From Candidatus Phycocordibacter aenigmaticus (GTDB taxonomy: Bacteria > Patescibacteriota > Minisyncoccia > Phycocordibacterales > Phycocordibacteraceae): 64,000 nt of DNA. The notes beneath the pieces are model-generated. The model saw only the letters and a program-made list of their open reading frames with translations. It was not told the origin of the DNA and did no database searches. This document shows positions 3,246 through 64,000 of this stretch, piece after piece. The position numbers were made by a program, and so were the translations under genes. The DNA lies in the NCBI GenBank assembly GCA_045401115.1, contig CP174359.1:419247-483246 (forward strand). The letters run 5' to 3'. Position 1 is the first letter of the stretch. Each line of letters starts with the position of its first letter.

Positions 3246-3533
3246 ATGACAACGTTAAATGATATTTTGCAAACTATCGCTGGCTTAATTGACCTTGCAA
3301 CACCAATTGTGGTTGCTCTTGCACTGCTGTACTTCTTCTGGGGTCTTGCGCAGTACATCCTTAATGCAGGCGATGAGAACAAGAAGAAAGAAGGTCGTGA
3401 AATCATGATCTGGGGCATTATTGCTCTCTTCGTTATGGTTTCTATCTGGGGTATTGTAAACGTCATCCAAGACACGTTTGACCTTCGTGGCGGTACTATT
3501 GAAGTGCCACAAGTTGAGACCAACAATAGGTAA
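3246..3533 (+). CDS. T4SS-pilin-like small membrane protein (paralog)
   Basis: Motif FFWGLAQYILNAGDENKKKEGREIMIWGIIALF; own RBS/AT-rich promoter. Confidence 0.5.
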   Translation: MTTLNDILQTIAGLIDLATPIVVALALLYFFWGLAQYILNAGDENKKKEGREIMIWGIIALFVMVSIWGIVNVIQDTFDLRGGTIEVPQVETNNR

Positions 3534-3760: not shown

Positions 3761-4021
3761 ATGAACGATCTCTCAATCTTTATAGATAACTTTGTACGTT
3801 TTATTATCAATCCACTGATCGGACTTCTTATGGCTTTGGCGGTTGTGTATTTCTTATGGGGAGCAGCACAGTTGGTACTCAACGGAGGAAGCGAAGAGGG
3901 GAGAAAGAAAGGTAAAGATGCTTTATTGTGGGGATTAATTGGTCTCTTTATTATGGTTGCTGTTTTCGGTATTCTACGTGTCGTCGTAGGTACATTTGTG
4001 CCTGAAGCAGTGACTTTCTAG
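3761..4021 (+). CDS. T4SS-pilin-like small membrane protein (paralog)
   Basis: Motif YFLWGAAQLVLNGGSEEGRKKGKDALLWGLIGLF; fourth tandem paralog. Confidence 0.5.
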   Translation: MNDLSIFIDNFVRFIINPLIGLLMALAVVYFLWGAAQLVLNGGSEEGRKKGKDALLWGLIGLFIMVAVFGILRVVVGTFVPEAVTF

Positions 4022-4114: not shown

Positions 4115-4198
4115 GGGCGAGTGGCGGAATTGGTAGACGCGCGTGGCTTAGGACCACGTATCTTCGGATGTGGAGGTTCGAGTCCTCTCTCGCCCACA
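4115..4198 (+). tRNA. tRNA-Leu (anticodon TAG), type II
   Basis: Acceptor GGGCGAG/CTCGCCC, D-arm GGAATTGGTAGAC, anticodon loop CTTAGGA, long variable arm, T-arm GGAGGTTCGAGTCCTCT. Confidence 0.8.
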
Positions 4199-4252
4199 AA
4201 ATTTAAAATCCTCAAAGTGTAAGCTTTGGGGATTTTTAAATTGCATAGAGGC

Positions 4253-4380
4253 GAAGAGGACTCGAAAGACGGAGGCGGTATACAAGACGAACGAAGTGAG
4301 TGCTTGTCGCCGAGGCCGGGCAGGAGGTCCTTATGCGCGTAAGCGAATTAGGAACCTGACGCCGAGCCTCTCTCGCCCAC
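4253..4380 (+). repeat. tRNA-3'-associated structured element, family A (copy A1, at tRNA-Leu-TAG); terminator follows at 4381..4422
   Basis: Begins AGAGGACTCGAA (inverted copy of the tRNA T-arm); conserved core AGACGGAGGCGG..CCGGGCAGGAGGTCCTTATG..CGAATTAGGAACCTGACGCCGAG; ends CCTCTCTCGCCCAC (direct copy of tRNA 3' end); the 25-nt tRNA trailer and terminator are also duplicated. Confidence 0.55.
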
Positions 4381-4495
4381 AAAATTTAAAACCTCAGAGT
4401 GTGAGCTCTGGGGATTTTTATATTTCGTAGAGGGGGAGAGGAATGGCTACAAATAAATAAACCGCACACGAGGAGTGCGCGGTTTATTTATTTTG

Positions 4496-5336: not shown

Positions 5337-5473
5337 TGCCGCCCGGAAGGACTCGAACCAGAAAGGGGGTCGGGGGAACTGGGTGTTCCCCCGTGGAGGA
5401 GGTTACACGGAACCGTGGGTTCCGTGAGCGCAGGTGAGAATACACCGAGCAGTGAGATTCCTAGTGGGCGGAC
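5337..5473 (+). repeat. tRNA-3'-associated structured element, family B (copy B1, at tRNA-Lys)
   Basis: Begins GCCGCCCGGAAGGACTCGAACC (inverted copy of tRNA-Lys 3' end); core AGGGGGTCGGGGG-hairpin-CCCCCGTGGAGGAGG, CGGAACCGTGGGTTCCG hairpin, TGAGCGCAG, GAGCAGTGAGATTCC; ends in degenerate direct copy ..GGGCGGAC; hairpin terminator follows. Confidence 0.55.
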
Positions 5474-5710
5474 TTGATAGGAAAAAGCAAACTGCTTTGC
5501 TTTTTCCGATACAAGTCCGAGGCGGAGGCATGTTTCATTTTTGCTGCAGTTCATGGCAAAAATGAAAAGCCGAGCCGTGGTCAAGCGCACTTAGTAGATT
5601 TCAAGCGAAGCGAAGAAATATACTTAGTGACGGGTGACGATATGATAAAAATGATTTATATACGCCTGTAAATTTGAAACCATAAAATAAAACACTTCGT
5701 TTAAAGTGTT

Positions 5711-13251: not shown

Positions 13252-13296
13252 CAAATTAAAAACTCGAGCTTTTGCTCGGGTTTTTAATTTGTTGCA

Positions 13297-13435
13297 TGCC
13301 GTGAGCAGGATTCGAACCCGTAGGGGGTCGGGGGCGGCGGAACGCCCCCGTGGAGGAGTTAGGCCGTAGGCCGACATAGAACCGCGGGTTCTATGAGCGC
13401 AGCGAAGCGAGCAGTGAGATTCCAGCCCGGCGCAC
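13297..13435 (+). repeat. tRNA-3'-associated structured element, family B (copy B2, at tRNA-Tyr)
   Basis: Imperfect inverted copy GAGCAGGATTCGAACC; core GTAGGGGGTCGGGGG..CCCCCGTGGAGGAG, TAGAACCGCGGGTTCTA hairpin, TGAGCGCAG, GAGCAGTGAGATTCC; ends in direct copy AGCCCGGCGCAC; terminator 13446..13475. Confidence 0.55.
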
Positions 13436-13483: not shown

Positions 13484-13615
13484 GCGCCGGGCTGGATTCG
13501 AAAGAAGAGGGGGTCGGGGAGAGGATAGTCTCCCCGTGGAGGAGGCTACACGGAACCGTGGGTTCCGTGAGCGCAGGCGAGAATACGCCGAGTAGTGAGA
13601 TCCCAGCCCGGTACA
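13484..13615 (+). repeat. tRNA-3'-associated structured element, family B (copy B3, tandem to B2)
   Basis: Begins GCGCCGGGCTGGATTCGAA = exact reverse complement of tRNA-Tyr 3' end; same core as B1/B2; ends in diverged direct copy TCCCAGCCCGGTACA; terminator 13621..13652. Confidence 0.55.
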
Positions 13616-13712
13616 TCTCCATAAACGGCTCACCCCACTGAGCCGTTTATTTCGTTGGGGAAAGCTTCACAGAGAGGCTTTGGAAGGCATTTTACGCGTG
13701 TATAATGGCCTT

Positions 13713-14720
13713 ATGAAGAGTTTTTTCATAGTGGGAGCCGTAATAGTTTTGTTCGTCCTCCCGTTGAGCGCACTCGCTTCGAATCATTTTACTAGCGACG
13801 GGTTTTCTTTGGTACCAGAAGTTGTCCGCAATATAACCAACCCTCAGGCGGTACAAGCATGTGACCTCGTAACGTTGATAGATAACATAGTAAGTTTTGC
13901 TACATATATTGCAGTATTTATTGCGACTATTATGTTTGCCTATGCTGGGTTCCTCTATGTTACAGCGGCATCGCGCCCAGAAAACCTCAATCAAGCAAAA
14001 GGTATTTTTGGTAAAGTATTTCTCGGGCTCATTCTTGTGCTTGGGGCATGGCTCATTATTAACTTAGTGATGTCTGTGCTGTTCAATGATGATATTGGCG
14101 GTAATTGGACGTCTTTAGGAGATTGCGGTGAACGACTAGAATTTAATCCTGAGGACTATGCGCCAGTTAATCCTGGTGTAAACACATATGTGCCGGACGA
14201 TCCTTATGATCTTGACCAGCGACGTGAAGCTGATTTAAGGGATTGGTTTGCGAGTTGTTATGTAGGAGTGAAAGATGTGAGCTCTACAAGGGTGAGTGGT
14301 ACGAGTGACGCAGCTGCAGTGTATGCCTGCGACCTTAAAAGAGATTGTGAAGCCACTCTTGGAGACAACACTCCACGTGATAGGACTCAGCCAGTTGATA
14401 TACATGATGACGACTCGGGAGTGTGCGGTATTGTAATCACCGGCGGCTCTGAAGGTGGTCATGCTGGTGGCACTCGCCCCGGTTCACATGGTGCTGGCGA
14501 TAAGCTCGATTTTCGAGTAACAGCAACTTTACAAAGTTACATCCAAGCACAGGAAGACGCAGGTCGCTTTACTCCTGTAGAGCCGCCGAGTTTTGGTGAT
14601 AGACAGTGGGTGGATACTGAAACAAACGCTGTGTGGACCCTAGAAGATGAGGGTGGGTCTAATCAGCATTATGATGTGTGTATAGAAAATTGCCGTACTC
14701 CATCTGCACAAGGCTCTTGA
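13713..14720 (+). CDS. T4SS-pilin-like N-terminal module fused to ~230-aa Cys/Asp-rich extracellular domain
   Basis: N-terminus (signal peptide, ATYIAVFIATIMFAYAGFLYV..ENLNQAKGIFGKVFLGLILVLGAWLI) matches the pilin-like family at 2477-4021; long C-terminal extension unique. Confidence 0.4.
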   Translation: MKSFFIVGAVIVLFVLPLSALASNHFTSDGFSLVPEVVRNITNPQAVQACDLVTLIDNIVSFATYIAVFIATIMFAYAGFLYVTAASRPENLNQAKGIFGKVFLGLILVLGAWLIINLVMSVLFNDDIGGNWTSLGDCGERLEFNPEDYAPVNPGVNTYVPDDPYDLDQRREADLRDWFASCYVGVKDVSSTRVSGTSDAAAVYACDLKRDCEATLGDNTPRDRTQPVDIHDDDSGVCGIVITGGSEGGHAGGTRPGSHGAGDKLDFRVTATLQSYIQAQEDAGRFTPVEPPSFGDRQWVDTETNAVWTLEDEGGSNQHYDVCIENCRTPSAQGS

Positions 14721-14914: not shown

Positions 14915-15029
14915 GCTTTTTGTATATTTGTATTTTTTAAAAAACCGCCATACATATGGCGGTTTTTTAAAATAGGGAAGCCTCCCGCCTGTATGCAAAA
15001 ACAGTGCGCAGGCACTGTTTTTTGTCAGG

Positions 15030-15100
15030 CGGGCCCACTAGGATTCGAACCTAGATCGACGGTTTTGGAGACCGTTATTCTGCCATTGAACTATAGGCCC
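15030..15100 (-). tRNA. tRNA-Trp (anticodon CCA)
   Basis: Revcomp: acceptor GGGCCTA/TGGGCCC, anticodon stem ACGGT/ACCGT loop CTCCAAA, T-arm CTAGGTTCGAATCCTAG. Confidence 0.8.
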
Positions 15101-16151: not shown

Positions 16152-16790
16152 ATGAATCATCATACAGATACAGAAGAGGACACTGTCGGCTTTACGCAGA
16201 TGGTAAAAGTAGGGCATCCTGTACCGGATATCGAATTCGAAGTGTATCAGAATGAAGAAATAAAAAAGACTCGTTTTGGAGATTATAAAGGAAAGTGGAT
16301 TATCCTTTTCTTTTATCCTGCCGACTTTACGTTTGTATGTCCAACTGAACTTGAAGAGCTTGCTGATTGCTATGAAGAATGTAAAGGTCTTGATACTGAA
16401 GTTATTAGTGTTTCAAGTGATACCGTGTTTACGCATAAAGCATGGCATGATGCATCAAAAGCAATAGGAAAGATTACTTTCCCTATGGCAGCAGATCCCG
16501 CAGCACGACTTTCTGTAGCATTTGGTACGTATGTTGAAGGAGACTCATTTAATCATACTGATGATGAGGGATTGTCCCTACGCGGTACGTTCATTATTGA
16601 TCCAGATGGTATTTTACGAACCATGGAAATTCATGACAATTCCATTGGACGATCTGCTCATGAGTTAGTGCGTAAATTAAAAGCAGCACAGTTTGTCCGT
16701 AAAAATGGTGGACAAGTATGTCCTGCTAGTTGGGAAGAAGGAGACGATACGCTTAAAGGAGGTGATCTTGATTTAGTTGGAAAGATTTAA
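16152..16790 (+). CDS. peroxiredoxin (AhpC/TSA family, 2-Cys)
   Basis: FFYPADFTFVCPTELEEL peroxidatic Cys motif; resolving Cys near C-terminus (VCPASWEEG). Confidence 0.8.
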   Translation: MNHHTDTEEDTVGFTQMVKVGHPVPDIEFEVYQNEEIKKTRFGDYKGKWIILFFYPADFTFVCPTELEELADCYEECKGLDTEVISVSSDTVFTHKAWHDASKAIGKITFPMAADPAARLSVAFGTYVEGDSFNHTDDEGLSLRGTFIIDPDGILRTMEIHDNSIGRSAHELVRKLKAAQFVRKNGGQVCPASWEEGDDTLKGGDLDLVGKI

Positions 16791-16811: not shown

Positions 16812-16844
16812 AAAAAAACGGCTCACTGTAGTGAGCCGTTTTTT
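16812..16844. terminator. bidirectional rho-independent terminator, AAACGGCTCA..TGAGCCGTTT family
   Basis: AAAAAAACGGCTCACTGTAGTGAGCCGTTTTTT; perfect palindrome with flanking A/T runs. Confidence 0.7.
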
Positions 16845-16886
16845 GTATGGCTGAGGTGGGGCCGTCCCGGAATAGCGGACTTTTTG

Positions 16887-17035
16887 CTGCACAGAGTTGG
16901 AGTCGGCGTCAGCTCACATCGCTATAATTGTTCGCTCCACTCCAATTCTAGCGTGTGGCTCCTGCCCGGACTCGCCGACAAGCACTCGCTCTCGCTCGTC
17001 TTGTGTACCGGCTCCGTCTTTCGACTCCCATCTGG
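16887..17035 (-). repeat. tRNA-3'-associated structured element, family A (copy A4, at tRNA-Leu-CAA, minus strand)
   Basis: Read on minus strand downstream of tRNA-Leu(CAA): inverted copy CCAGATGGGAGTCGAA, core AGACGGAGCCGGTACACAAGACGAGCGAG..GAGTGCTTGTCGGCGAGTCCGGGCAGGAG..GCTGACGCCGAC, ends in diverged direct copy TCCAACTCTGTGCAGC; ~85% identical to A1 core with compensatory changes in the hairpin. Confidence 0.55.
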
Positions 17036-17088
17036 TTGCGACAAATAAAAATCACCGCACACTTTCGTGTACGGTTCATTTATTTTGT

Positions 17089-17169
17089 GCCCAGAGTGGG
17101 AGTCGAACCCACATCCCCGAAGAGACACGATTTTGAGTCGTGCGCGTATACCAATTCCGCCATCTGGGC
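17089..17169 (-). tRNA. tRNA-Leu (anticodon CAA), type II
   Basis: Revcomp: acceptor GCCCAGA/TCTGGGC, anticodon stem CACGA loop CTCAAAA, long variable arm, T-arm GTGGGTTCGACTCCCAC. Confidence 0.8.
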
Positions 17170-17290
17170 AGGTGTGATTATCCTACTGTGTAATTGCGTG
17201 TATGTCCAATTCTAAGAAATTATGTGAGTTTAGTAAAAAATAAGGATGTACACAACAATAAGATTACTCTGACATGCTAAAATAAGTTCC

Positions 17291-29558: not shown

Positions 29559-29629
29559 TCCGGGATCGTCTAATGGCAGGACGCTTGGTTTTGGTCCAAG
29601 AAATTGGGGTTCGAGTCCCTGTCCCGGAA
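29559..29629 (+). tRNA. tRNA-Gln (anticodon TTG)
   Basis: Acceptor TCCGGGA/TCCCGGA, D-arm GTCTAATGGCAGGAC, anticodon stem CTTGG/CCAAG loop TTTTGGT, T-loop TTCGAGT. Confidence 0.7.
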
Positions 29630-29681
29630 CTAGGTTACGTTACACACCCGATACGAGAGTATCGGGTGTTTACGTACACCT

Positions 29682-29844
29682 TTCCGGGACAGGGACTCGA
29701 AAGACGGAAGCGCAGGGCTCCCGTTGTGCTGAGTTATATGCACAATGGGAACGCTGAGTCCGGGCAGGAGGTCGTTATGAGTTTTCATGCCGGCAGGCAG
29801 GCAAAACGAATTACGAACCTGACGCCGAGTCCCTGTCCCGGAAC
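29682..29844 (+). repeat. tRNA-3'-associated structured element, family A (copy A2, at tRNA-Gln); hairpin terminator 29845..29880
   Basis: Begins TTCCGGGACAGGGACTCGAA = exact reverse complement of tRNA-Gln 3' end; core AGACGGAAGCG..hairpin..GAGTCCGGGCAGGAGGTCGTTATG..CGAATTACGAACCTGACGCCGAG; ends GAGTCCCTGTCCCGGAAC (direct copy from mid T-loop). Confidence 0.55.
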
Positions 29845-29912
29845 TAGAAAGAAAAGCCGCTTTCAGCGGCTTTTCTTAGTTCCGGAGACAAGAACGGTGC
29901 CTGCGCACCGTT

Positions 29913-30051
29913 CGGGGGACTCGAACCGCCGGAGGCATGTCGCGCGCAGCGGAGCGAGCACGAAGCCGAGGCGTGGCCCGCGGTCGTTATGAATATTTTC
30001 TGAAAGAAAATATGAATTACGAACCATCAGGCTCTAGCCCTGTCCCGGAAC
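29913..30051 (+). repeat. tRNA-3'-associated structured element, family A (copy A3, tandem to A2, more diverged); two terminators 30054..30082 and 30088..30120
   Basis: Begins GGGGGACTCGAACC, contains GCCGGAGGC.., GGTCGTTATG, ..GAATTACGAACC.., ends CCCTGTCCCGGAAC direct copy. Confidence 0.5.
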
Positions 30052-30243
30052 AAAATAAACGGCTCACCCAGGTGAGCCGTTCTTTGCTAAACGGCTCAGT
30101 GCACTGAGCTGTTTATTTTTTAAATAAAAATCAAAAATGTGATGCTTTAAAGAAAGAGATTTTTGAGGTGGCTGGGTTACCTCTAAAAACAGTGCCAGTT
30201 GGGTCGAATTTTGCGTTAGCGATCAATGAAATTGTGGGGTAAC

Positions 30244-34254: not shown

Positions 34255-34455
34255 TTTTTTATAGTTAACAAACCTCAGTTACGAGGTGTGCAGGTTGAAA
34301 AATCAAACGTAGTCAGATAGAAAGTTTGAGGCTAGTGAGCCCCACACGAGTATCAAAAGCGTGTGTGTATAATAGTATATTTACGATTTTTGTCAATCTA
34401 CTATTTTTGATCCTCGGAAGAGGGTGTACACAATGCATATTTTAAAAAGTGACAT

Positions 34456-34485
34456 ATAAACGGCTCATTCCATTGAGCCGTTTAT
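34456..34485. terminator. terminator hairpin of AAACGGCTCA..TGAGCCGTTT family
   Basis: ATAAACGGCTCATTCCATTGAGCCGTTTAT. Confidence 0.6.
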
Positions 34486-34572
34486 ATTTATAGAGAAGTA
34501 TAGGGACCTATCCACTTTACAAGGAATATATTTTAAATCAGAAGTTGGTTGCTATAGTACACTATAAAAGAT

Positions 34573-45935: not shown

Positions 45936-45974
45936 TTTACATCACGCCTCATTTAATACGTGGGAATAGATACG

Positions 45975-46006
45975 CAAAAACGGCTCATCAAGGTGAGCCG
46001 TTTTTG
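45975..46006. terminator. terminator hairpin of AAACGGCTCA..TGAGCCGTTT family (lies inside the ORF-track N-terminal extension of cysS)
   Basis: CAAAAACGGCTCATCAAGGTGAGCCGTTTTTG. Confidence 0.6.
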
Positions 46007-46043
46007 CGTATACCCACCACTATGCATTTGCTATACTTGCTAT

Positions 46044-54648: not shown

Positions 54649-54689
54649 AAAAAATAAACGGCTCAGTGCACTGAGCCGTTTATTTTTTT
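54649..54689. terminator. terminator hairpin of AAACGGCTCA..TGAGCCGTTT family
   Basis: AAAAAATAAACGGCTCAGTGCACTGAGCCGTTTATTTTTTT. Confidence 0.7.
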
Positions 54690-56109: not shown

Positions 56110-57993
56110 ATGCAATACTACATGTCTACACATATATTACAGAGAGGATTATTACTTCTCGGAGCTACATCTCTTTTTGTGTTTTTTGTTGGTGTTCTGT
56201 TTTTTATACCAAATGACTCAGCGCTTGCTGCGACATGTATGCCGGGAAACAGTCAGTCAGTACGTATGACTGGAACTAATCCGAACAGAGAAGCCGATTC
56301 TGTTTGGGCGAGTGCACGCATTAATAGTTCGTATGCTCCTGGAGAGGATATATATGCGGTGGGGGCGATGTGGTCGGATGATTACCCAACCATATGTCCT
56401 CAGCTAGCAATTAATGGAGTCTCTTTTGACCTCGGCTGTCGATTACAGATGGTGTTGACCGAAACTAAGAAAGTAGATACGGCGCCAATGGAACCAGGAA
56501 CGTATGAAATGTGGTGGTCAGTGAGCGGCACACACCCATACCGTGTTGATCGTATTTGTCCTTTGACGTATACCGTTGTTGCGCCCACTCCAACCGCTTC
56601 ACTTTCCGCATCACCATCAACAGTAACCAATGGTGACAGCAGTATACTTTCGTGGTCTTCATCTAACGCCACGAGTTGTACCGGTTCAGGGTTTGATACT
56701 AACAGTGCCACTTCAGGGAGTGTAACGTTGTCACCAAATACAAACACTACGTACACGGTAGAGTGTACAAATACGAGCGGGTCAGCGAGTGATTCAACAA
56801 ACATTTCTGTTATACAACCTCCACAAGCACCAACCGCCTCACTTTCTGCATCACCTTCATCTATTACCCAAGGCGATAGTAGTACGCTTACGTGGACATC
56901 AACCGCTGCAAGTTTCTGTACTGGTTCTGGGTTTAGCACAGGGAATCGTGCCAATGGTTCGGTGACTGTATCACCAAGCAACACCACTGATTATTCAATT
57001 ACTTGTAGTGGTACTGGAGGGTCTGCGCAAGATTCTGCTCGCGTGACGGTTGCGGGAGATGTTCCTACACCAACCGCCTCACTTTCTGCATCACCTTCAT
57101 CTATTACCCAAGGCGATAGTAGTACGCTTACGTGGACATCAACCGCTGCAAGTTTCTGTACTGGTTCTGGGTTTAGCACAGGGAATCGTGCCAATGGTTC
57201 GGTGACTGTATCACCAAGCAACACCACTGATTATTCAATTACTTGTAGTGGTACTGGAGGGTCTGCACAAGATTCTGCTCGCGTGACGGTTGCTTCCGTA
57301 CCAGGTGTGGTGTCGGCATCACTTTCAGCATCTCCAGCTGTTATTTCTAACGGAGAGACAGCATTGCTTTCATGGAGTTCAGTGAACGCTACGCGTTGTT
57401 CTGGCGATGGGAAAGACGGCTTCTATACCGGTGGACGTACTGTAGGGTCACGACTTGTAACTCCAGAAGATTCGACTGTGTATGCGCTTACTTGTGTTGG
57501 TCCGAGTGGTGCCGCGTATGCCTCTGCGTCTGTCATCGTAATACATACGGGTGGACCAGGCGACCCGGGTGATCCAGGCGACCCAGGCGATCCGGGTGAT
57601 CCAAGGGATCCTGAGGATGACCCATCAGAGTGTTCTGACGGAATTGATAATGATGGCGACGGGGCAGTAGATTATCCCGATGATCCTGCATGTTCTTCAG
57701 AAGATGATGACAATGAACGGGCACTAGACGTTTCCCTTGAACTCAACGCGACACCAAATCCAACACGTTCAGGAAAAACTACTACCTTACAATGGAGTAC
57801 GCAAAACGCTATTTCCTGTGCACTTGGTGTAGCAGGAGGGGCTCCTGTTGCTTTACCAAGTGTTTCTGGTTCTCGTGAATCAGCACCATTAACAACTGAG
57901 ACATCATTCAGATTAACTTGTAGAAACTTGGATCAAGTTCCGTTTTCTACTGAAACCAAGGTGAGAATACTCCCTTCATTTATTGAAGAGTAG
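56110..57993 (+). CDS. secreted repeat protein: N-terminal ~110-aa Cys-containing module, tandem ~80-aa Ig-like repeats, (GDP)n collagen-like run, TSP3-like Ca-binding motif
   Basis: Signal peptide; repeats PTASLSASPSSITQGDSSTLTWTST..CTGSGFSTGNRANGSV.. (two units identical at DNA level); PGDPGDPGDPGDPGDP; CSDGIDNDGDGAVDYPDDPAC. Confidence 0.55.
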   Translation: MQYYMSTHILQRGLLLLGATSLFVFFVGVLFFIPNDSALAATCMPGNSQSVRMTGTNPNREADSVWASARINSSYAPGEDIYAVGAMWSDDYPTICPQLAINGVSFDLGCRLQMVLTETKKVDTAPMEPGTYEMWWSVSGTHPYRVDRICPLTYTVVAPTPTASLSASPSTVTNGDSSILSWSSSNATSCTGSGFDTNSATSGSVTLSPNTNTTYTVECTNTSGSASDSTNISVIQPPQAPTASLSASPSSITQGDSSTLTWTSTAASFCTGSGFSTGNRANGSVTVSPSNTTDYSITCSGTGGSAQDSARVTVAGDVPTPTASLSASPSSITQGDSSTLTWTSTAASFCTGSGFSTGNRANGSVTVSPSNTTDYSITCSGTGGSAQDSARVTVASVPGVVSASLSASPAVISNGETALLSWSSVNATRCSGDGKDGFYTGGRTVGSRLVTPEDSTVYALTCVGPSGAAYASASVIVIHTGGPGDPGDPGDPGDPGDPRDPEDDPSECSDGIDNDGDGAVDYPDDPACSSEDDDNERALDVSLELNATPNPTRSGKTTTLQWSTQNAISCALGVAGGAPVALPSVSGSRESAPLTTETSFRLTCRNLDQVPFSTETKVRILPSFIEE

Positions 57994-59944: not shown

Positions 59945-62900
59945 ATGCACGCTATTTTTAAAGCAACACGTCACCGTATTTTTCTCGCCACCATTGTGGG
60001 TATGTTGGTTCTTTTTCCTATAGGTGTTGACGCGTTCCTTGACTTTAATGGAGGTGGTTTTTTTAATCCTGATCCAGGCGATCAAGGATTCCCTAATCCA
60101 GGCGGAGGCGGACCTCTTAGTATTAGTTGTGGAGCTACTCCTCGAACAATTTCTTCAGGAGGATCAGTTAATTGGTTCTCTTCTGTGTCAGGAGGAACTG
60201 GTTCTTATACGTATTCATGGAGTGGGACTAATGGGTTGTCTGGTAACGCGTCAAATGTGTTTAAAACATATAGTACTGTAGGTACTAAAACAGCACAGGT
60301 TACTGTATATAGTGGCGGACAAACGGCAAGCGATACATGTGGGACGGTACAAGTAAGCGCTCCAACACCAAGTCCGACAGTATCATTATCAGCGAACCCA
60401 ACATCAATTGCAGCAGGAAATACCTCAACACTTTCATGGTCGTCATCTAACGCCACGAGTTGTACCGGTTCAGGATTCAGCACCGGAGGCGCTACGAGTG
60501 GTTCACGTTCGGTGTCGCCAAGTTCGAACACCACATACGGTATTGTTTGTAGTGGCGCAGGAGGAACAGTATATAAAGCAGCATCGGTTTCAGTAACTCA
60601 AGCGGTAGCAACCAATCTTTCCATCTACCCAACATCAATTGTACGCGGAAATTCTGCAACCATCTCATGGTCGTCATCTAACGCCACGAGTTGTACCGGT
60701 TCAGGATTCAGCACCGGAGGCGCTACGAGTGGTTCACGTTCGGTGTCGCCAAGTTCTTCAACAACATATAGTGTGACCTGTCAAAATTCAGTTTCATCAT
60801 CTTCGAAGAGTAGGACATTGACCGTCACCACTCCAACTCCAGCCCCAACCGCCTCACTCTCAGCATCACCGTCATCACTTACGCAAGGCCAGTACACAAC
60901 ACTTTCATGGTCGTCATCTAATGCCAGTAGTTGTGCTGGTTCCGGGTTTAGCACCTCAAACCGTACCAGCGGTTCAGTGACCATATCACCAAACAGCACC
61001 ACAAATTATTCGGTGACGTGTTACGGCACAGGCGGAACCGCATCTGATAGTTCACGAGTGACCGTTACCACGCCACTTCCATCATCATGTAGCAGTGGTT
61101 CTCGTCAAACAGTGAGTATGGCGTTATATAACACAAATAATGAGGCATCAGGTATCTGGGGCAGTGCAAGTATTAATAGTTCATATGCTCCGGGTGAGAC
61201 GATACGCGCAACTGGCTCATTATGGTCAGACGATTATCCACGTGCGTGTCCTTCACTATCTATTAACGGCACCTCATTTAATCTTGGTTGTCAGTTGCAA
61301 CTAGCACCAAGCAAAGTGCTCACAGTTGGTACAGCACCATCAACTCCAGGAACGTATCAAATGTGGTGGGCAGTGGGCAGCACAGGAAGCTATCGACTTG
61401 ATCGTATTTGTCCTATGACATATACCGTTGTTGCACCCGCCCCAACCACCTCACTCTCCGCATCACCTTCTTCTATTACACGTGGTGACAACAGTACACT
61501 TTCATGGTCATCGACTAATGCCACAAGCTGTTCTGGGAATGGTTTTAACACTTCAAACCGTACCAGCGGCTCGGTATCCGTATCACCAAACAGCACCACA
61601 AATTATTCGGTGACGTGTACTGGTGGTGGGGGAAGTCGTTCAGATTCTAGCACTGTTACTGTCACCACTCCAACTCCAGCCCCAACCGCCTCACTCTCAG
61701 CATCACCGTCATCACTTACGCAAGGCCAGTACACAACACTTTCATGGTCGTCATCTAATGCCAGTAGTTGTGCTGGTTCCGGGTTTAGCACCTCAAACCG
61801 TACCAGCGGTTCAGTGACCATATCACCAAACAGCACCACAAATTATTCGGTGACGTGTTACGGCACAGGCGGAACCGCATCTGATAGTTCACGAGTGACC
61901 GTTACCACGCCACTTCCATCATCATGTAGCAGTGGTTCTCGTCAAACAGTGAGTATGGCGTTATATAACACAAATAATGAGGCATCAGGTATCTGGGGCA
62001 GTGCAAGTATTAATAGTTCATATGCTCCGGGTGAGACGATACGCGCAACTGGCTCATTATGGTCAGACGATTATCCACGTGCGTGTCCTTCACTATCTAT
62101 TAACGGCACCTCATTTAATCTTGGTTGTCAGTTGCAACTAGCACCAAGCAAAGTGCTCACAGTTGGTACAGCACCATCAACTCCAGGAACGTATCAAATG
62201 TGGTGGGCAGTGGGCAGCACAGGAAGCTATCGACTTGATCGTATTTGTCCTATGACATATACCGTTGTTGCACCCGCCCCAACCACCTCACTCTCCGCAT
62301 CACCTTCTTCTATTACACGTGGTGACAACAGTACACTTTCATGGTCATCGACTAATGCCACAAGCTGTTCTGGGAATGGTTTTAACACTTCAAACCGTAC
62401 CAGCGGCTCGGTATCCGTATCACCAAACAGCACCACAAATTATTCGGTGACGTGTACTGGTGGTGGGGGTTCAGATTCTGATACGGCTCGTGTCACTGTT
62501 AATGATCCGCCTCCAGAACCAACGGCAAATATTTCTGTGAACCCGTCTACAATTATCCGTGGAAACAGCAGTACGCTTTCATGGTCATCGACTGCCGCAA
62601 GTTTTTGTACTGGCTCAGGATTCAGCACTTCAAACCGTACGAGTGGCTCGGTATCCGTATCACCAAACAGCACCACAAATTATTCGGTGACGTGTAGTGG
62701 AACTGGTGGCAGTGATTCTGACACTGCGCGCGTGACTGTAAACGACCCCGCCCCAACCACCTCACTCTCCGCATCACCTTCTTCTATTACACGTGGTGAC
62801 AACAGTACACTTTCATGGTCATCGACTAATGCCACAAGCTGTTCTGGGAATGGTTTTAACACTTCAAACCGTACCAGCGGCTCGGTATCCGTATCACCAA

Positions 62901-64000
62901 ACAGCACCACAAATTATTCGGTGACGTGTACTGGTGGTGGGGGTTCAGATTCTGATACGGCTCGTGTCACTGTTAATGATCCGCCTCCAGAACCAACGGC
63001 AAATATTTCTGTGAACCCGTCTACAATTATCCGTGGAAACAGCAGTACTATTTCATGGAGTTCCGAAGATGCTACCGGATGTACTGGTTCAGGTTTTTCA
63101 ACAAGTGGTGCCACGAGCGGTTCACGTACCATTTCACCGCCTTCAAGTCGAAATTATAGTGTTACATGTTCTGGACCTGGTGGTAGTGATTCAGACACTG
63201 CGGGAATAACGGTGAACGATCCAGCTCCAACCGCCTCACTCTCAGTGTCACCGTCGTCTATTACGCGCGGTGAAACTGTCACGTTAAGTTGGTCTTCAAA
63301 TAATGCTACTCGTTGTTCTGGCGATGGCCAAGATGGTTTTTTCACTGGAGGTAATGCTTCAGGTAATATCACCATTATTCCGACTGGAAGTAAGACATAT
63401 ACTGTAAGTTGTACTGGTCCTGGCGGTAGCGCTTCTGATGGTGTATATGTGTCAGTAAGTAATCCCGCTCCAACCGCCTCACTCTCAGCATCACCATCTT
63501 CACTTACTCAAGGTGGTAATACTCGATTGAGTTGGAATTCAACCAATGCAACCCGTTGTTCTGGTGATGGGCAAGACGGTTTTTACACTAATGCGCGTAC
63601 GTCAGGTAGTGTGACTATCACTCCAAGTAGTAGTAAAACATACACTGTTACCTGTGAAGGATATGGCGGTGAAGATACTGACTCAGCTTCTGTAAGCATT
63701 TCAACACAATGCTCAGATGGCATCGACAACGATGGCGATGGGCTTATCGACCATCCAAATGACCCAGGCTGTTTTGCGGCATCAGACAATGACGAATATA
63801 ATCCACCACCAGAAGCGTCAATTTCGCTCTCAGTGTCACCTAATCCTGCACGTACCAATGAAACCGCACGACTCTCATGGACCGCACGTAATGTGGAAAA
63901 CGGATCCTGTCGTCTGACCGGTAGTAACGGAGATTCATGGAATTTGAGTGGCACACAAGGCTCTCGTACTTCATCAACACTTACCGAGGAGGTTACGTAT
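59945..64000 (+). CDS. giant secreted tandem-repeat surface protein (3' partial, runs off window; >1350 aa)
   Basis: ATG 59945 with signal peptide MHAIFKATRHRIFLATIVGMLVLFPIGVDA; no stop in this frame to window end (all ORF-track hits here are antisense or off-frame); >15 Ig-like ~80-aa repeats, two copies of the ~110-aa module shared with 56110, and a second CSDGIDNDGDGLIDHPNDPGC motif. Confidence 0.55.
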   Translation, partial: MHAIFKATRHRIFLATIVGMLVLFPIGVDAFLDFNGGGFFNPDPGDQGFPNPGGGGPLSISCGATPRTISSGGSVNWFSSVSGGTGSYTYSWSGTNGLSGNASNVFKTYSTVGTKTAQVTVYSGGQTASDTCGTVQVSAPTPSPTVSLSANPTSIAAGNTSTLSWSSSNATSCTGSGFSTGGATSGSRSVSPSSNTTYGIVCSGAGGTVYKAASVSVTQAVATNLSIYPTSIVRGNSATISWSSSNATSCTGSGFSTGGATSGSRSVSPSSSTTYSVTCQNSVSSSSKSRTLTVTTPTPAPTASLSASPSSLTQGQYTTLSWSSSNASSCAGSGFSTSNRTSGSVTISPNSTTNYSVTCYGTGGTASDSSRVTVTTPLPSSCSSGSRQTVSMALYNTNNEASGIWGSASINSSYAPGETIRATGSLWSDDYPRACPSLSINGTSFNLGCQLQLAPSKVLTVGTAPSTPGTYQMWWAVGSTGSYRLDRICPMTYTVVAPAPTTSLSASPSSITRGDNSTLSWSSTNATSCSGNGFNTSNRTSGSVSVSPNSTTNYSVTCTGGGGSRSDSSTVTVTTPTPAPTASLSASPSSLTQGQYTTLSWSSSNASSCAGSGFSTSNRTSGSVTISPNSTTNYSVTCYGTGGTASDSSRVTVTTPLPSSCSSGSRQTVSMALYNTNNEASGIWGSASINSSYAPGETIRATGSLWSDDYPRACPSLSINGTSFNLGCQLQLAPSKVLTVGTAPSTPGTYQMWWAVGSTGSYRLDRICPMTYTVVAPAPTTSLSASPSSITRGDNSTLSWSSTNATSCSGNGFNTSNRTSGSVSVSPNSTTNYSVTCTGGGGSDSDTARVTVNDPPPEPTANISVNPSTIIRGNSSTLSWSSTAASFCTGSGFSTSNRTSGSVSVSPNSTTNYSVTCSGTGGSDSDTARVTVNDPAPTTSLSASPSSITRGDNSTLSWSSTNATSCSGNGFNTSNRTSGSVSVSPNSTTNYSVTCTGGGGSDSDTARVTVNDPPPEPTANISVNPSTIIRGNSSTISWSSEDATGCTGSGFSTSGATSGSRTISPPSSRNYSVTCSGPGGSDSDTAGITVNDPAPTASLSVSPSSITRGETVTLSWSSNNATRCSGDGQDGFFTGGNASGNITIIPTGSKTYTVSCTGPGGSASDGVYVSVSNPAPTASLSASPSSLTQGGNTRLSWNSTNATRCSGDGQDGFYTNARTSGSVTITPSSSKTYTVTCEGYGGEDTDSASVSISTQCSDGIDNDGDGLIDHPNDPGCFAASDNDEYNPPPEASISLSVSPNPARTNETARLSWTARNVENGSCRLTGSNGDSWNLSGTQGSRTSSTLTEEVTY

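Follow-up and report, generated by a model that had tools for sequence, protein, structure and literature searches.

A family of structured RNA elements behind tRNA genes of Patescibacteria, closed by arms derived from the adjacent tRNA

The R2 retrotransposon carries at its 5' end a ribozyme resembling that of the hepatitis delta virus (HDV), which pairs with the upstream 28S ribosomal RNA (rRNA). Tandem inversion duplications, known from Salmonella, form by snap-back at quasi-palindromes. For integration in transfer RNA (tRNA) genes, which leaves repeats of the tRNA 3' end as attL and attR, a sublocation scheme was reportedly drawn up by Williams in 2002. A 64-kb stretch of the genome of Candidatus Phycocordibacter aenigmaticus (Patescibacteria; contig CP174359.1, positions 419,247 to 483,246; hereafter the window, 64,000 nucleotides, nt) contains, behind its tRNA-Leu(CAA) gene, an element (copy A4) that has single features in common with several such known systems and lacks a defining one of each. 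This element is a true member of a multi-copy structured-RNA family, which is confined to Patescibacteria in both collections searched, is linked in a nearly obligate way to tRNA 3' ends, and takes its arms from the local tRNA. Each copy folds as a three-way junction, consisting of a closing stem (P1) and two hairpin arms (P2a/P2 and Px/P3).

A sequence-only reading of the A4 region had flagged one hairpin, now recognised as P2, as a conserved RNA hairpin, based on a compensatory base change relative to a second copy, A1. This is supported but too narrow, as the hairpin makes up a single arm of a three-way junction, whose most unusual feature, the tRNA-derived closing stem, had been missed. 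The A1 hairpin GGCG-GTAT-ACAAG[16 nt]CTTGT-CGCC lies exactly at 4274-4311, as reported, and the A4 hairpin reads GCCG-GTAC-ACAAG[17 nt]CTTGT-CGGC on the minus strand, as reported too, but at plus-strand positions 16974-17012, 10 nt away from the 16964-17002 given at the time. The second base pair is indeed flipped, from G-C in A1 to C-G in A4. Such a single flip between two copies is weak evidence alone, but the compensatory change, although real, had been under-counted, structure-aware alignment giving seven double changes between A1 and A4 (one in the P2 hairpin, four in the second hairpin P3, and two in the closing stem). The similarity of the two cores was confirmed as well by within-window BLAST (88.6% identity across 70 nt, E = 3.5e-20), an E value that places it far above chance. 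The placement of A4 between the peroxiredoxin terminator and tRNA-Leu(CAA) is correct, and the two open reading frames (ORFs) that had been dismissed there (16897-17136 and 16955-17215) are present, overlap the tRNA gene as well as A4, and are most plausibly spurious. Finally, the claim was not refuted when independent variation at the paired positions was looked for in more copies. In the covariance-model alignment of 31 copies, the flagged P2 pair is CG in 16 copies, GC in 13, AU in one, and UA in one, without any broken cell, and all four basal pairs of the P2 hairpin covary.

Across the family, the 5' strand of P1 ends in ...nUCG and is followed by the junction (G)AAAGA. Helix P2a (CGGA/UCCG), with a GAG bulge on its 3' side, is stacked on the variable hairpin P2, whereas Px (GGC/GCC) leads over an AGG/GAC internal loop to P3, a variable hairpin that contains a bulged A as well as a conserved U-U mismatch; P1 is then completed by its 3' strand, CGAn.... 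Around 35 nucleotides of the junction hardly vary (UCGAAAGACGGA, GAGUCCGGGCAGGAG, and CUGACGCCGA). RNAalifold independently gave the same three-way-junction fold as the covariance model. In the 31-copy alignment, changes on both sides were found in 26 of the 34 model pairs, and 89.1% of the cells are paired, compared with 70.5% in column shuffles (none of 500 shuffles reached the observed value) and 31-41% in slid-register controls. Similarly, the covariation score (0.458) lies above that of the shuffled (0.144) and slid (at most 0.093) controls. Px, otherwise invariant, changes to GAC/GUC in one subfamily, indicating that this helix is supported too. The folding energy of the window copies that were folded, A1 and A4, is well below that of shuffled controls (z = -3.0 and -3.5, respectively). 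In addition, G-U pairs exceed A-C combinations 14:1 in P2 and 16:8 in P3 (30:9 combined), indicating that the folding strand is the tRNA-sense strand, whereas P1 shows no such excess (13:15). This bias is expected for RNA, and single-stranded DNA of the tRNA-sense strand would show it equally.

The family came into view through the word TCGAAAGACGGAG, which recurs behind tRNA-Gln at position 29697 of the window; comparison of three window loci revealed a larger shared unit of ~150 nt, present as A1, A2, and A4. A scan with exact patterns of one genome per prokaryotic species returned 24 loci, 20 of which are real copies, all in metagenome-assembled genomes of Patescibacteria (Paceibacteria, Kaiser-, Campbell-, and Vogelbacteria, Parcubacteria, and Saccharibacteria). 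The four loci outside Patescibacteria lack the rest of the element and are chance matches. A covariance model, built from 23 copies, added nine copies in already-fetched loci, and a metagenome scan added ~10 distinct ones, resulting in a total of ~41 distinct copies, three of them in the window and the others in Patescibacteria genomes and metagenomes. The element measures ~130-180 nt across the family. Rfam 15 matched only eight tRNAs in the whole window at the gathering threshold, nothing relevant in the region of A2 and the diverged unit A3 at E <= 10, and nothing at all in the A4 region at E <= 5. As a literature search that included the invariant sequence strings returned no description of the family either, the structured element is apparently undescribed. 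Searches of IMG/VR with two patterns of this family (A) and one of the unrelated core B described below gave chance matches only, one of them a contig with a high guanine-plus-cytosine content, without a covariance-model match or a tRNA, and BLAST against phage and plasmid collections revealed no copy.

The linkage to tRNA genes is close. In 25 of the 27 copies measured, the distance from the 3' end of a same-strand tRNA to the junction is 39-79 nt (in most cases 55-67 nt), and all ten further metagenome copies are likewise found behind a same-strand tRNA; the second and third units of tandem arrays (L023 and L024) follow another unit instead of the tRNA directly. The tRNAs carrying a family copy represent 19 amino-acid specificities. 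In the first of the two exceptions (L021), the upstream tRNA was missed by ARAGORN because a group I intron interrupts it (3288-3531; Rfam Intron_gpI, 40 bits, E = 1.7e-8, below the gathering score). In the second (genome ARS1360), the cognate tRNA-Pro(TGG) lies 2.4 kb upstream of its A element, separated from it by an islet of two genes (L029 4113-6507, the same region as L019), coding for a methyltransferase-domain protein and a 351-amino-acid protein without Pfam match. In a related genome (L002), tRNA and element adjoin each other and the same MscS gene, indicating that other DNA can insert between tRNA and element.

The closing stem is made of tRNA sequence on both sides. Its 3' strand is a copy of the 3' end of the local tRNA from C56 of the T-loop onwards, usually exact and often so over at least 16 nt, and the 5' strand is reverse-complementary to that segment. 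The insert is thus flanked by a direct repeat of the tRNA 3' end, as tRNA-integrating islands are. The stem is perfect in A2 (18 of 18 pairs, TTCCGGGACAGGGACTCG with CGAGTCCCTGTCCCGGAA, the latter identical to tRNA-Gln 29612-29629), L006 (17 of 17), and L023 (16 of 16). In the case of tRNA-Gln, the 5' arm reads CAGGG whereas the T-stem strand of the tRNA itself reads UGGGG, indicating that the 5' arm complements the 3' strand and is not a remnant of the 5' half of the tRNA; a deletion derivative of tRNA 5' strands was rejected accordingly. For A4, the source of the arms is the last ~18 nt of tRNA-Leu(CAA), from T-loop C56 to the discriminator. Its 3' arm CGACUCCAACUCUGUGCA copies the tRNA end CGACUCCCACUCUGGGCA with two mismatches, and P1 pairing remains only in GGGAGUCG and four distal pairs. 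A hairpin precedes the copies that lie behind a tRNA gene; in A4 it has a 9-bp stem (ACCGTACAC/GTGTGCGGT) followed by TTTTT according to a terminator scan. The tRNA 3' end, this hairpin, and the 5' arm form one long imperfect palindrome, at A4 as elsewhere in the family, which runs through the trailer and hence points to DNA or the primary transcript, not the mature tRNA, as the template. The direct repeat varies in length (14-85 nt) and reaches 52-85 nt in L016, L010, and L038, where it runs through trailer and hairpin; these cases are recent tandem duplications of the whole unit. No element is carried by tRNA-Trp of the window, and at 14985-15035 (minus strand) its terminator palindrome takes in 8 nt of the tRNA end and trailer (CCCGCCTG ... 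CAGGCGGG), which may be what is left of a lost unit or the starting point of a new one. The tRNA-Trp gene does carry an A-type element in L001, L016, and L031.

The distal parts of the arms decay while the core is conserved or homogenised within a genome. P1 is paired in 88-96% of the copies at tRNA positions 56-62, in about 64-72% at positions 63-70, and in 44-48% at positions 71-73, and falls to background level beyond position 73, so that the junction-proximal 7-10 bp alone stay paired. Decay was seen in either arm, whereas the core has not decayed. Indeed, the cores are about 85-90% identical between genomes whose host proteins at syntenic loci are only 37-67% identical, and A4, behind tRNA-Leu, is nearly identical to the Kaiserbacteria copy L016, behind tRNA-Tyr, the variable part of P3 included. 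ARS1360 possesses five copies behind different tRNAs with decayed arms and an identical P2 that occurs in no other genome of the set; a sixth copy, behind tRNA-Phe, has a slightly mutated form of this P2, and one of the five joins it to a different P3. The shared P2 and this mosaic indicate homogenisation or replacement of the core within the genome. In addition, truncated units (4412-4442 of the window and L038) and a copy mutated at invariant positions (L032, 2297-2456) indicate birth and death of units. A1 is followed (4381-4442, plus strand) by another tRNA 3' end and hairpin and by ~12 nt from the start of an additional 5' arm (GGGGGAGAGGA), where the repeat stops at the terminator of the convergent tRNA-Leu(TAA). 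This is a truncated second unit resulting from tandem duplication. The two hairpin copies around A1 differ in a compensatory manner (CAAAG/CTTTG and CAGAG/CTCTG).

The same arms also enclose other cores. Core B, of which the window holds three units, is unrelated to core A and is predicted to form a four-way junction (z = -2.5 to -5.2). A B unit consists, in order, of a 5' arm reverse-complementary to the tRNA 3' end, the core, a 3' arm copying the tRNA 3' end, and a hairpin. The 3' arm of the copy at tRNA-Lys matches the tRNA-Lys(CTT) type of genome L015 and not the adjacent tRNA-Lys(TTT). Core B had no Rfam match, and neither the other fetched loci nor IMG/VR yielded a copy. Furthermore, two diverged A-like units of the window share CGGAGGCATGT...GCCGAGsCGTGG and the P3 module without keeping the junction consensus; the covariance model recognises only their P3 (10.8 bits for A3 and 14.9 bits for the unit behind core B). 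The 5' arm of A3 holds an inserted hairpin, as does the third unit of the L023 array. The latter array, behind tRNA-Gln, contains a third core, C, in the order C-A-C. Finally, tRNA-Tyr carries core A in L001 and L016 and core B in the window. The occurrence of different cores behind the same tRNA across genomes indicates that the arm architecture is a shared vehicle and not the property of one core.

Table 1. Coordinates of elements, their parts, and neighbouring features (positions in nt from the first letter of the window; empty cells, not reported)
Feature	Position	Strand	Remarks
A4 element	16888-17039	-	~150 nt three-way junction; flagged hairpin is its P2
A4 5' arm (P1 5' strand) GCAACCAGATGGGAGTCG	17022-17039	-	degenerate reverse complement of tRNA-Leu(CAA) 3' end
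A4 junction AAAGA and P2a 5' strand CGGA	17013-17021	-	family-invariant; invariant alignment columns
A4 P2 hairpin GCCG-GUAC-ACAAG[17]CUUGU-CGGC	16974-17012	-	
A4 invariant GAG bulge, P2a 3' strand UCCG, Px 5' strand GGC, internal-loop AGG	16961-16973	-	
A4 P3 hairpin AGCCACACGCUA...UAGCGAUGUGAGCU	16911-16960	-	4 double compensatory changes relative to A1
A4 internal-loop GAC, Px 3' strand GCC, 3' arm CGACUCCAACUCUGUGCA	16888-16910	-	
Spacer hairpin and T-run (terminator-like), between tRNA and A4	17045-17075	-	terminator scan, sequence
tRNA-Leu(CAA) gene	17087-17169	-	ARAGORN; Rfam tRNA 60.8 bits
Peroxiredoxin terminator	~16812-16845		
AhpC/peroxiredoxin gene	16152-16790		Pfam scan of window
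A1 element	4250-4379	+	behind tRNA-Leu(TAG) 4115-4197; covariance model 118.6 bits
A1 5' arm; P2; P3; 3' arm	4250-4264; 4274-4311; 4325-4357; 4363-4379	+	
A2 element	29682-29843	+	behind tRNA-Gln(TTG) 29559-29630; covariance model 114.2 bits
Core B unit	5339-5473	+	behind tRNA-Lys(TTT)
Core B units, in tandem	13291-13435; 13486-13612	+	behind tRNA-Tyr
Diverged A-like unit A3	29879-30051	+	presumably the A3 of the sequence-only reading
Diverged A-like unit	5518-5640	+	behind B unit at tRNA-Lys
Terminators with shared arms	13619-13652; 16812-16845; 30053-30086; 30085-30118; 34454-34487; 45974-46007; 54652-54685		

A promoter scan yielded promoter-like sites only upstream of the tRNAs, for tRNA-Leu(CAA) at 17237-17180. 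The element, which apparently lacks a promoter of its own, would be transcribed by read-through from the tRNA promoter. The spacer hairpin of A4 resembles an efficient terminator, and the one before A2 lacks a T-run. Downstream of the elements, terminators, convergent genes, or unrelated genes are found; A4 is directed towards the end of the peroxiredoxin gene, A1 towards tRNA-Leu(TAA). The genes of the window are of a housekeeping nature (among them GyrA, IF-2, ClpB, MiaA, AhpC, ParB, RelA, TopA, DprA, SerRS, DnaX, RNR, and UvrABC).

Among described systems, the tRNA-like domain of transfer-messenger RNA (tmRNA), MALAT1-associated small cytoplasmic RNA (mascRNA), and other tRNA-like structures are alike in that their ends pair and the 3' strand carries acceptor and T-stem sequence; the element is likewise placed beside a tRNA, and enzymes that process tRNAs could act on it. 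It differs in having no analogue of the T-loop and D-loop, in the poor conservation of its acceptor end, and in a helix that copies whichever tRNA lies upstream instead of having a fixed identity. Indeed, ARAGORN and Rfam call true tRNAs only, and the junction takes the place of the T-loop. The islands in tRNA genes share the direct repeat of the tRNA 3' end from the T-loop and the tandem arrays behind one tRNA, but the element is only ~150 nt long, lacks an integrase, has an extra, inverted copy of the site, serves 19 specificities with one core, and has a covarying RNA fold as its interior. An island of the tyrosine-integrase type is not supported, as no integrase was found in the 64-kb window and no recurrent mobility gene in the fetched flanks, the islet genes included. 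Miniature inverted-repeat transposable elements (MITEs), repetitive extragenic palindromes and bacterial interspersed mosaic elements (REP/BIME), and Correia-type repeats are likewise short, non-coding, multi-copy, palindromic, and intergenic, often lie by terminators, and undergo birth-and-death turnover. Compared with a MITE, however, the element is reversed, its inverted repeats being target-derived and copy-specific and its interior conserved; the arms vary per copy and match the local tRNA, and the direct repeat of 14-85 nt is no fixed duplication. As in R2, the element would be transcribed together with a strongly expressed host RNA gene, sequence of which enters its fold, but it has neither a reverse transcriptase nor an HDV-like double pseudoknot, and many tRNA targets instead of one ribosomal DNA site. 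Tandem inversion duplications show the same direct-inverted-direct arrangement of one segment, which in the element is the tRNA 3' end, and a hairpin likewise marks the first junction; the second junction of the element holds a conserved structured core, and the arrangement recurs at many tRNAs in many genomes.

The type II hammerhead ribozyme is also a three-way junction and has the same order of parts (open stem, GAAA, hairpin, hairpin, CUGA, open stem). It was rejected on four grounds, namely that CUGACGC has an invariant C at the position of the conserved A9, that GAAAGA leaves six instead of three nucleotides between stems, that UCCG is directly followed by GGC without an unpaired H cleavage nucleotide, and that no Rfam hammerhead matched at E <= 5. 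The msr-msd non-coding RNA of retrons is alike in the terminal inverted repeats that close the RNA, the G after the stem, the two hairpin domains, and the size, whereas the arms of the element are tRNA-derived and its copies are dispersed behind tRNAs; no reverse-transcriptase domain was found in the scanned ORFs of the window, and the downstream regions consist of terminators or housekeeping genes. A riboswitch or cis-regulatory leader does not agree with the absence of a consistent position upstream of a regulated gene class. A primer-binding site of the retroviral type was suggested by the 18-nt complement to a tRNA end in A2, but TGG for CCA is missing and the palindrome enters the trailer. 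Insertion at a fixed distance, as by CRISPR-associated transposons, requires less spread than 39-79 nt, and the hairpin and arm length explain the spacing. Also rejected were an RNase Z beside the tRNA-Gln array (the metallo-beta-lactamase proteins there are ComEC-like), an invertible DNA switch between the arms (all copies checked lie on the strand of their tRNA), and a mini-ORF in P3 (AGGAGG, 5 nt, and ATG in A1, A2, and L023), as the ATG is missing from most copies.

Taken together, the element may be a non-autonomous structured-RNA repeat that is read through from tRNA promoters and whose arms are templated from the local tRNA gene, a reading to which a probability of about 0.5 is assigned. 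During transcription, the tRNA would fold first, leaving the 5' arm to pair with the downstream copy and not with the tRNA. The family would spread as a non-autonomous repeat, beyond vertical descent alone, and a new copy would gain its arms from the DNA of the tRNA gene behind which it lands. The likeliest route would be template switching, recombination, or microhomology repair at the T-loop box and the palindromic spacer hairpin. The nearly universal T-loop box GGTTCGAnTCC stands on either side of the core, in opposite orientations, and the palindromic hairpin may act as the pivot of the strand switch. Such a route would reproduce the order tRNA - X - hairpin - X' - TCGAA - core - CGA - X - hairpin, and arrays may grow through tandem duplication between the direct repeats. 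The core may be a protein-binding scaffold or a catalytic RNA needed for its own processing or spread; the very high conservation of the junction nucleotides is the sole feature suggestive of a self-cleaving ribozyme. Going further, it is possible, though tentative, that a new class of mobile RNA elements targeting tRNA genes is involved, in which unrelated cores (A with A' and A'', B, and C) share one closing stem, re-templated from the segment between T-loop and 3' end of the tRNA gene behind which they land, the T-loop box is the point of recombination or template switching, and the core is a catalytic or protein-recruiting RNA driving processing or copying.

Several points weigh against the reading as a non-autonomous repeat. 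A Pfam scan over the window ORFs revealed no reverse transcriptase, integrase, or transposase, and clustering of the ORFs across all fetched loci showed housekeeping synteny only, without a recurrent neighbour or mobility gene. The template-switch route is a reconstruction and needs several switches. A look-up with exact proteins for strains with an empty site yielded one 1.4-kb contig only and no pair of empty and filled sites. The patchiness of the family is perhaps overstated, as exact-pattern searches recover only close relatives, and A4 itself may be poorly transcribed given its terminator-like spacer hairpin. Moreover, the strong conservation of the core, the compensatory change within one genome (L001 compared with L003), and the concerted evolution in ARS1360 would fit a family of host-beneficial RNA genes equally well.

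The latter is the main rival, which overlaps the favoured reading. It considers the element a stable non-coding RNA in a tRNA-like minihelix that is beneficial to the host, duplicated only locally, and kept by selection; P1 would mimic the coaxial helix of acceptor and T-arm in the tRNA before it, so that the RNA would be excised from the tRNA co-transcript and capped by RNase P, RNase Z, and the CCA-adding enzyme, as is the case for tmRNA or mascRNA, and the core would bind a protein or ligand. Beside the constraint on the core in hosts with such diverged proteins and the compensatory and concerted changes inside genomes, this agrees with the presence of the element behind the same tRNAs (Tyr, Trp, Pro, Gly, and Gln) in several genomes, with its retention in very small genomes, with a promoter at the tRNA only, and with a stem that ends at about tRNA position 72/73 in well-preserved copies. 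The poorly conserved acceptor end counts against it, as precisely the part of P1 that these enzymes need is the least conserved (positions 71-73). Furthermore, the junction lies 15-18 bp from the end instead of 12, a T-loop is absent, ARAGORN and the Rfam models of tRNA, tmRNA, and tRNA-like structures give no match, the palindrome runs past the tRNA end into the trailer, pointing to a DNA-templated origin, and the truncated, mutated, and orphan copies, together with several unrelated cores, suggest turnover and not an essential gene. On balance, the minihelix is somewhat doubtful. An element acting as single-stranded DNA is unlikely. In that case, P2 and P3 would be recognised by an HUH-type transposase or relaxase, as in palindrome-associated elements derived from IS200/IS605, or the unit would serve as a retron-like template for a reverse transcriptase encoded elsewhere, with cleavage or priming at the P1 junctions. 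Two hairpins with conserved feet within terminal inverted repeats, an invariant G right after the closing stem, comparable to the branching G in the msr RNA of retrons, the strand-biased excess of G-T over A-C, equally expected for single-stranded DNA, the constant co-orientation with the tRNA, and a left junction always after TCGAA, possibly a short target word, are in line with it. Yet, no transposase, relaxase, or reverse transcriptase occurs in the 64-kb window or beside any copy, IS200/IS605 elements do not create target-derived inverted and direct repeats, the right flank does not continue the target of the left flank, and ~35 invariant junction nucleotides in a three-way junction are more typical of a folded RNA than of a pair of independent DNA hairpins.

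A relic of an integrative element, with the repeats as attL and attR of a tyrosine integrase crossing over in the T-loop, the core as the attP-arm region surviving island deletion, and the arrays as products of tandem accretion, is very unlikely. The direct repeat does extend from the T-loop to or past the tRNA end, exactly as with T-loop-targeting integrases, tandem arrays exist, and one genome has the 2.4-kb islet at tRNA-Pro. However, there is no integrase near any copy and no copy in IMG/VR or the phage and plasmid collections, integrases are site-specific whereas one core occurs behind tRNAs of 19 specificities, covariation in P2 and P3 is not expected of double-stranded protein-binding arms, and the inverted copy of the site is left without explanation. 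That these are ordinary degenerate repeats without selected structure, in which compensatory changes arose by chance, deserves practically no credence, being refuted by the double changes in most model pairs, the shuffles that never reached the observed pairing, the collapse of the slid controls, and the conservation of the cores across diverged hosts.

Patescibacteria have some of the smallest bacterial genomes. The 64-kb window alone spends ~1.2 kb on at least eight tRNA-tail elements, and the family is conserved in several Patescibacteria lineages in spite of the protein drift mentioned above. Arms copied from the adjacent tRNA in both orientations and common to unrelated cores have no described counterpart that could be found. 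If the core is a functional RNA, it would be a candidate for a new class of non-coding RNA in a large and poorly understood part of bacterial diversity; if the element is mobile, tRNA genes would be targetable without a site-specific integrase. In practice, the family explains spurious ORFs and repeats beside tRNAs in metagenome assemblies of Patescibacteria, and the covariance model can be used to annotate its copies.

Besides the elements, other features of the window were noted. Pilin-like genes of type IV secretion (TrbC/VirB2 and T4SS_pilin; 2477-2824, 3761-4021, and 13680-14720) adjoin two tRNA-element arrays, and homologues lie between tRNA-Trp and tRNA-Tyr in L001 and L016, probably merely as a result of conserved synteny. 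Seven terminator hairpins have common arms, AAACGGCTCA(n4-6)TGAGCCGTTT, recalling DNA-uptake sequences that are paired in terminators; the window encodes DprA and ComEC-like proteins. Finally, repeat arrays at 56400-57300 and 60400-63700, with units of ~234-243 nt (also 597 and 837 nt) that are 60-100% identical, span a plus-strand ORF of 627 amino acids and a minus-strand run of ORFs of 72-78 amino acids. These ORFs, which have no Pfam match, appear to encode paralogous small proteins of a secreted or repeat type.

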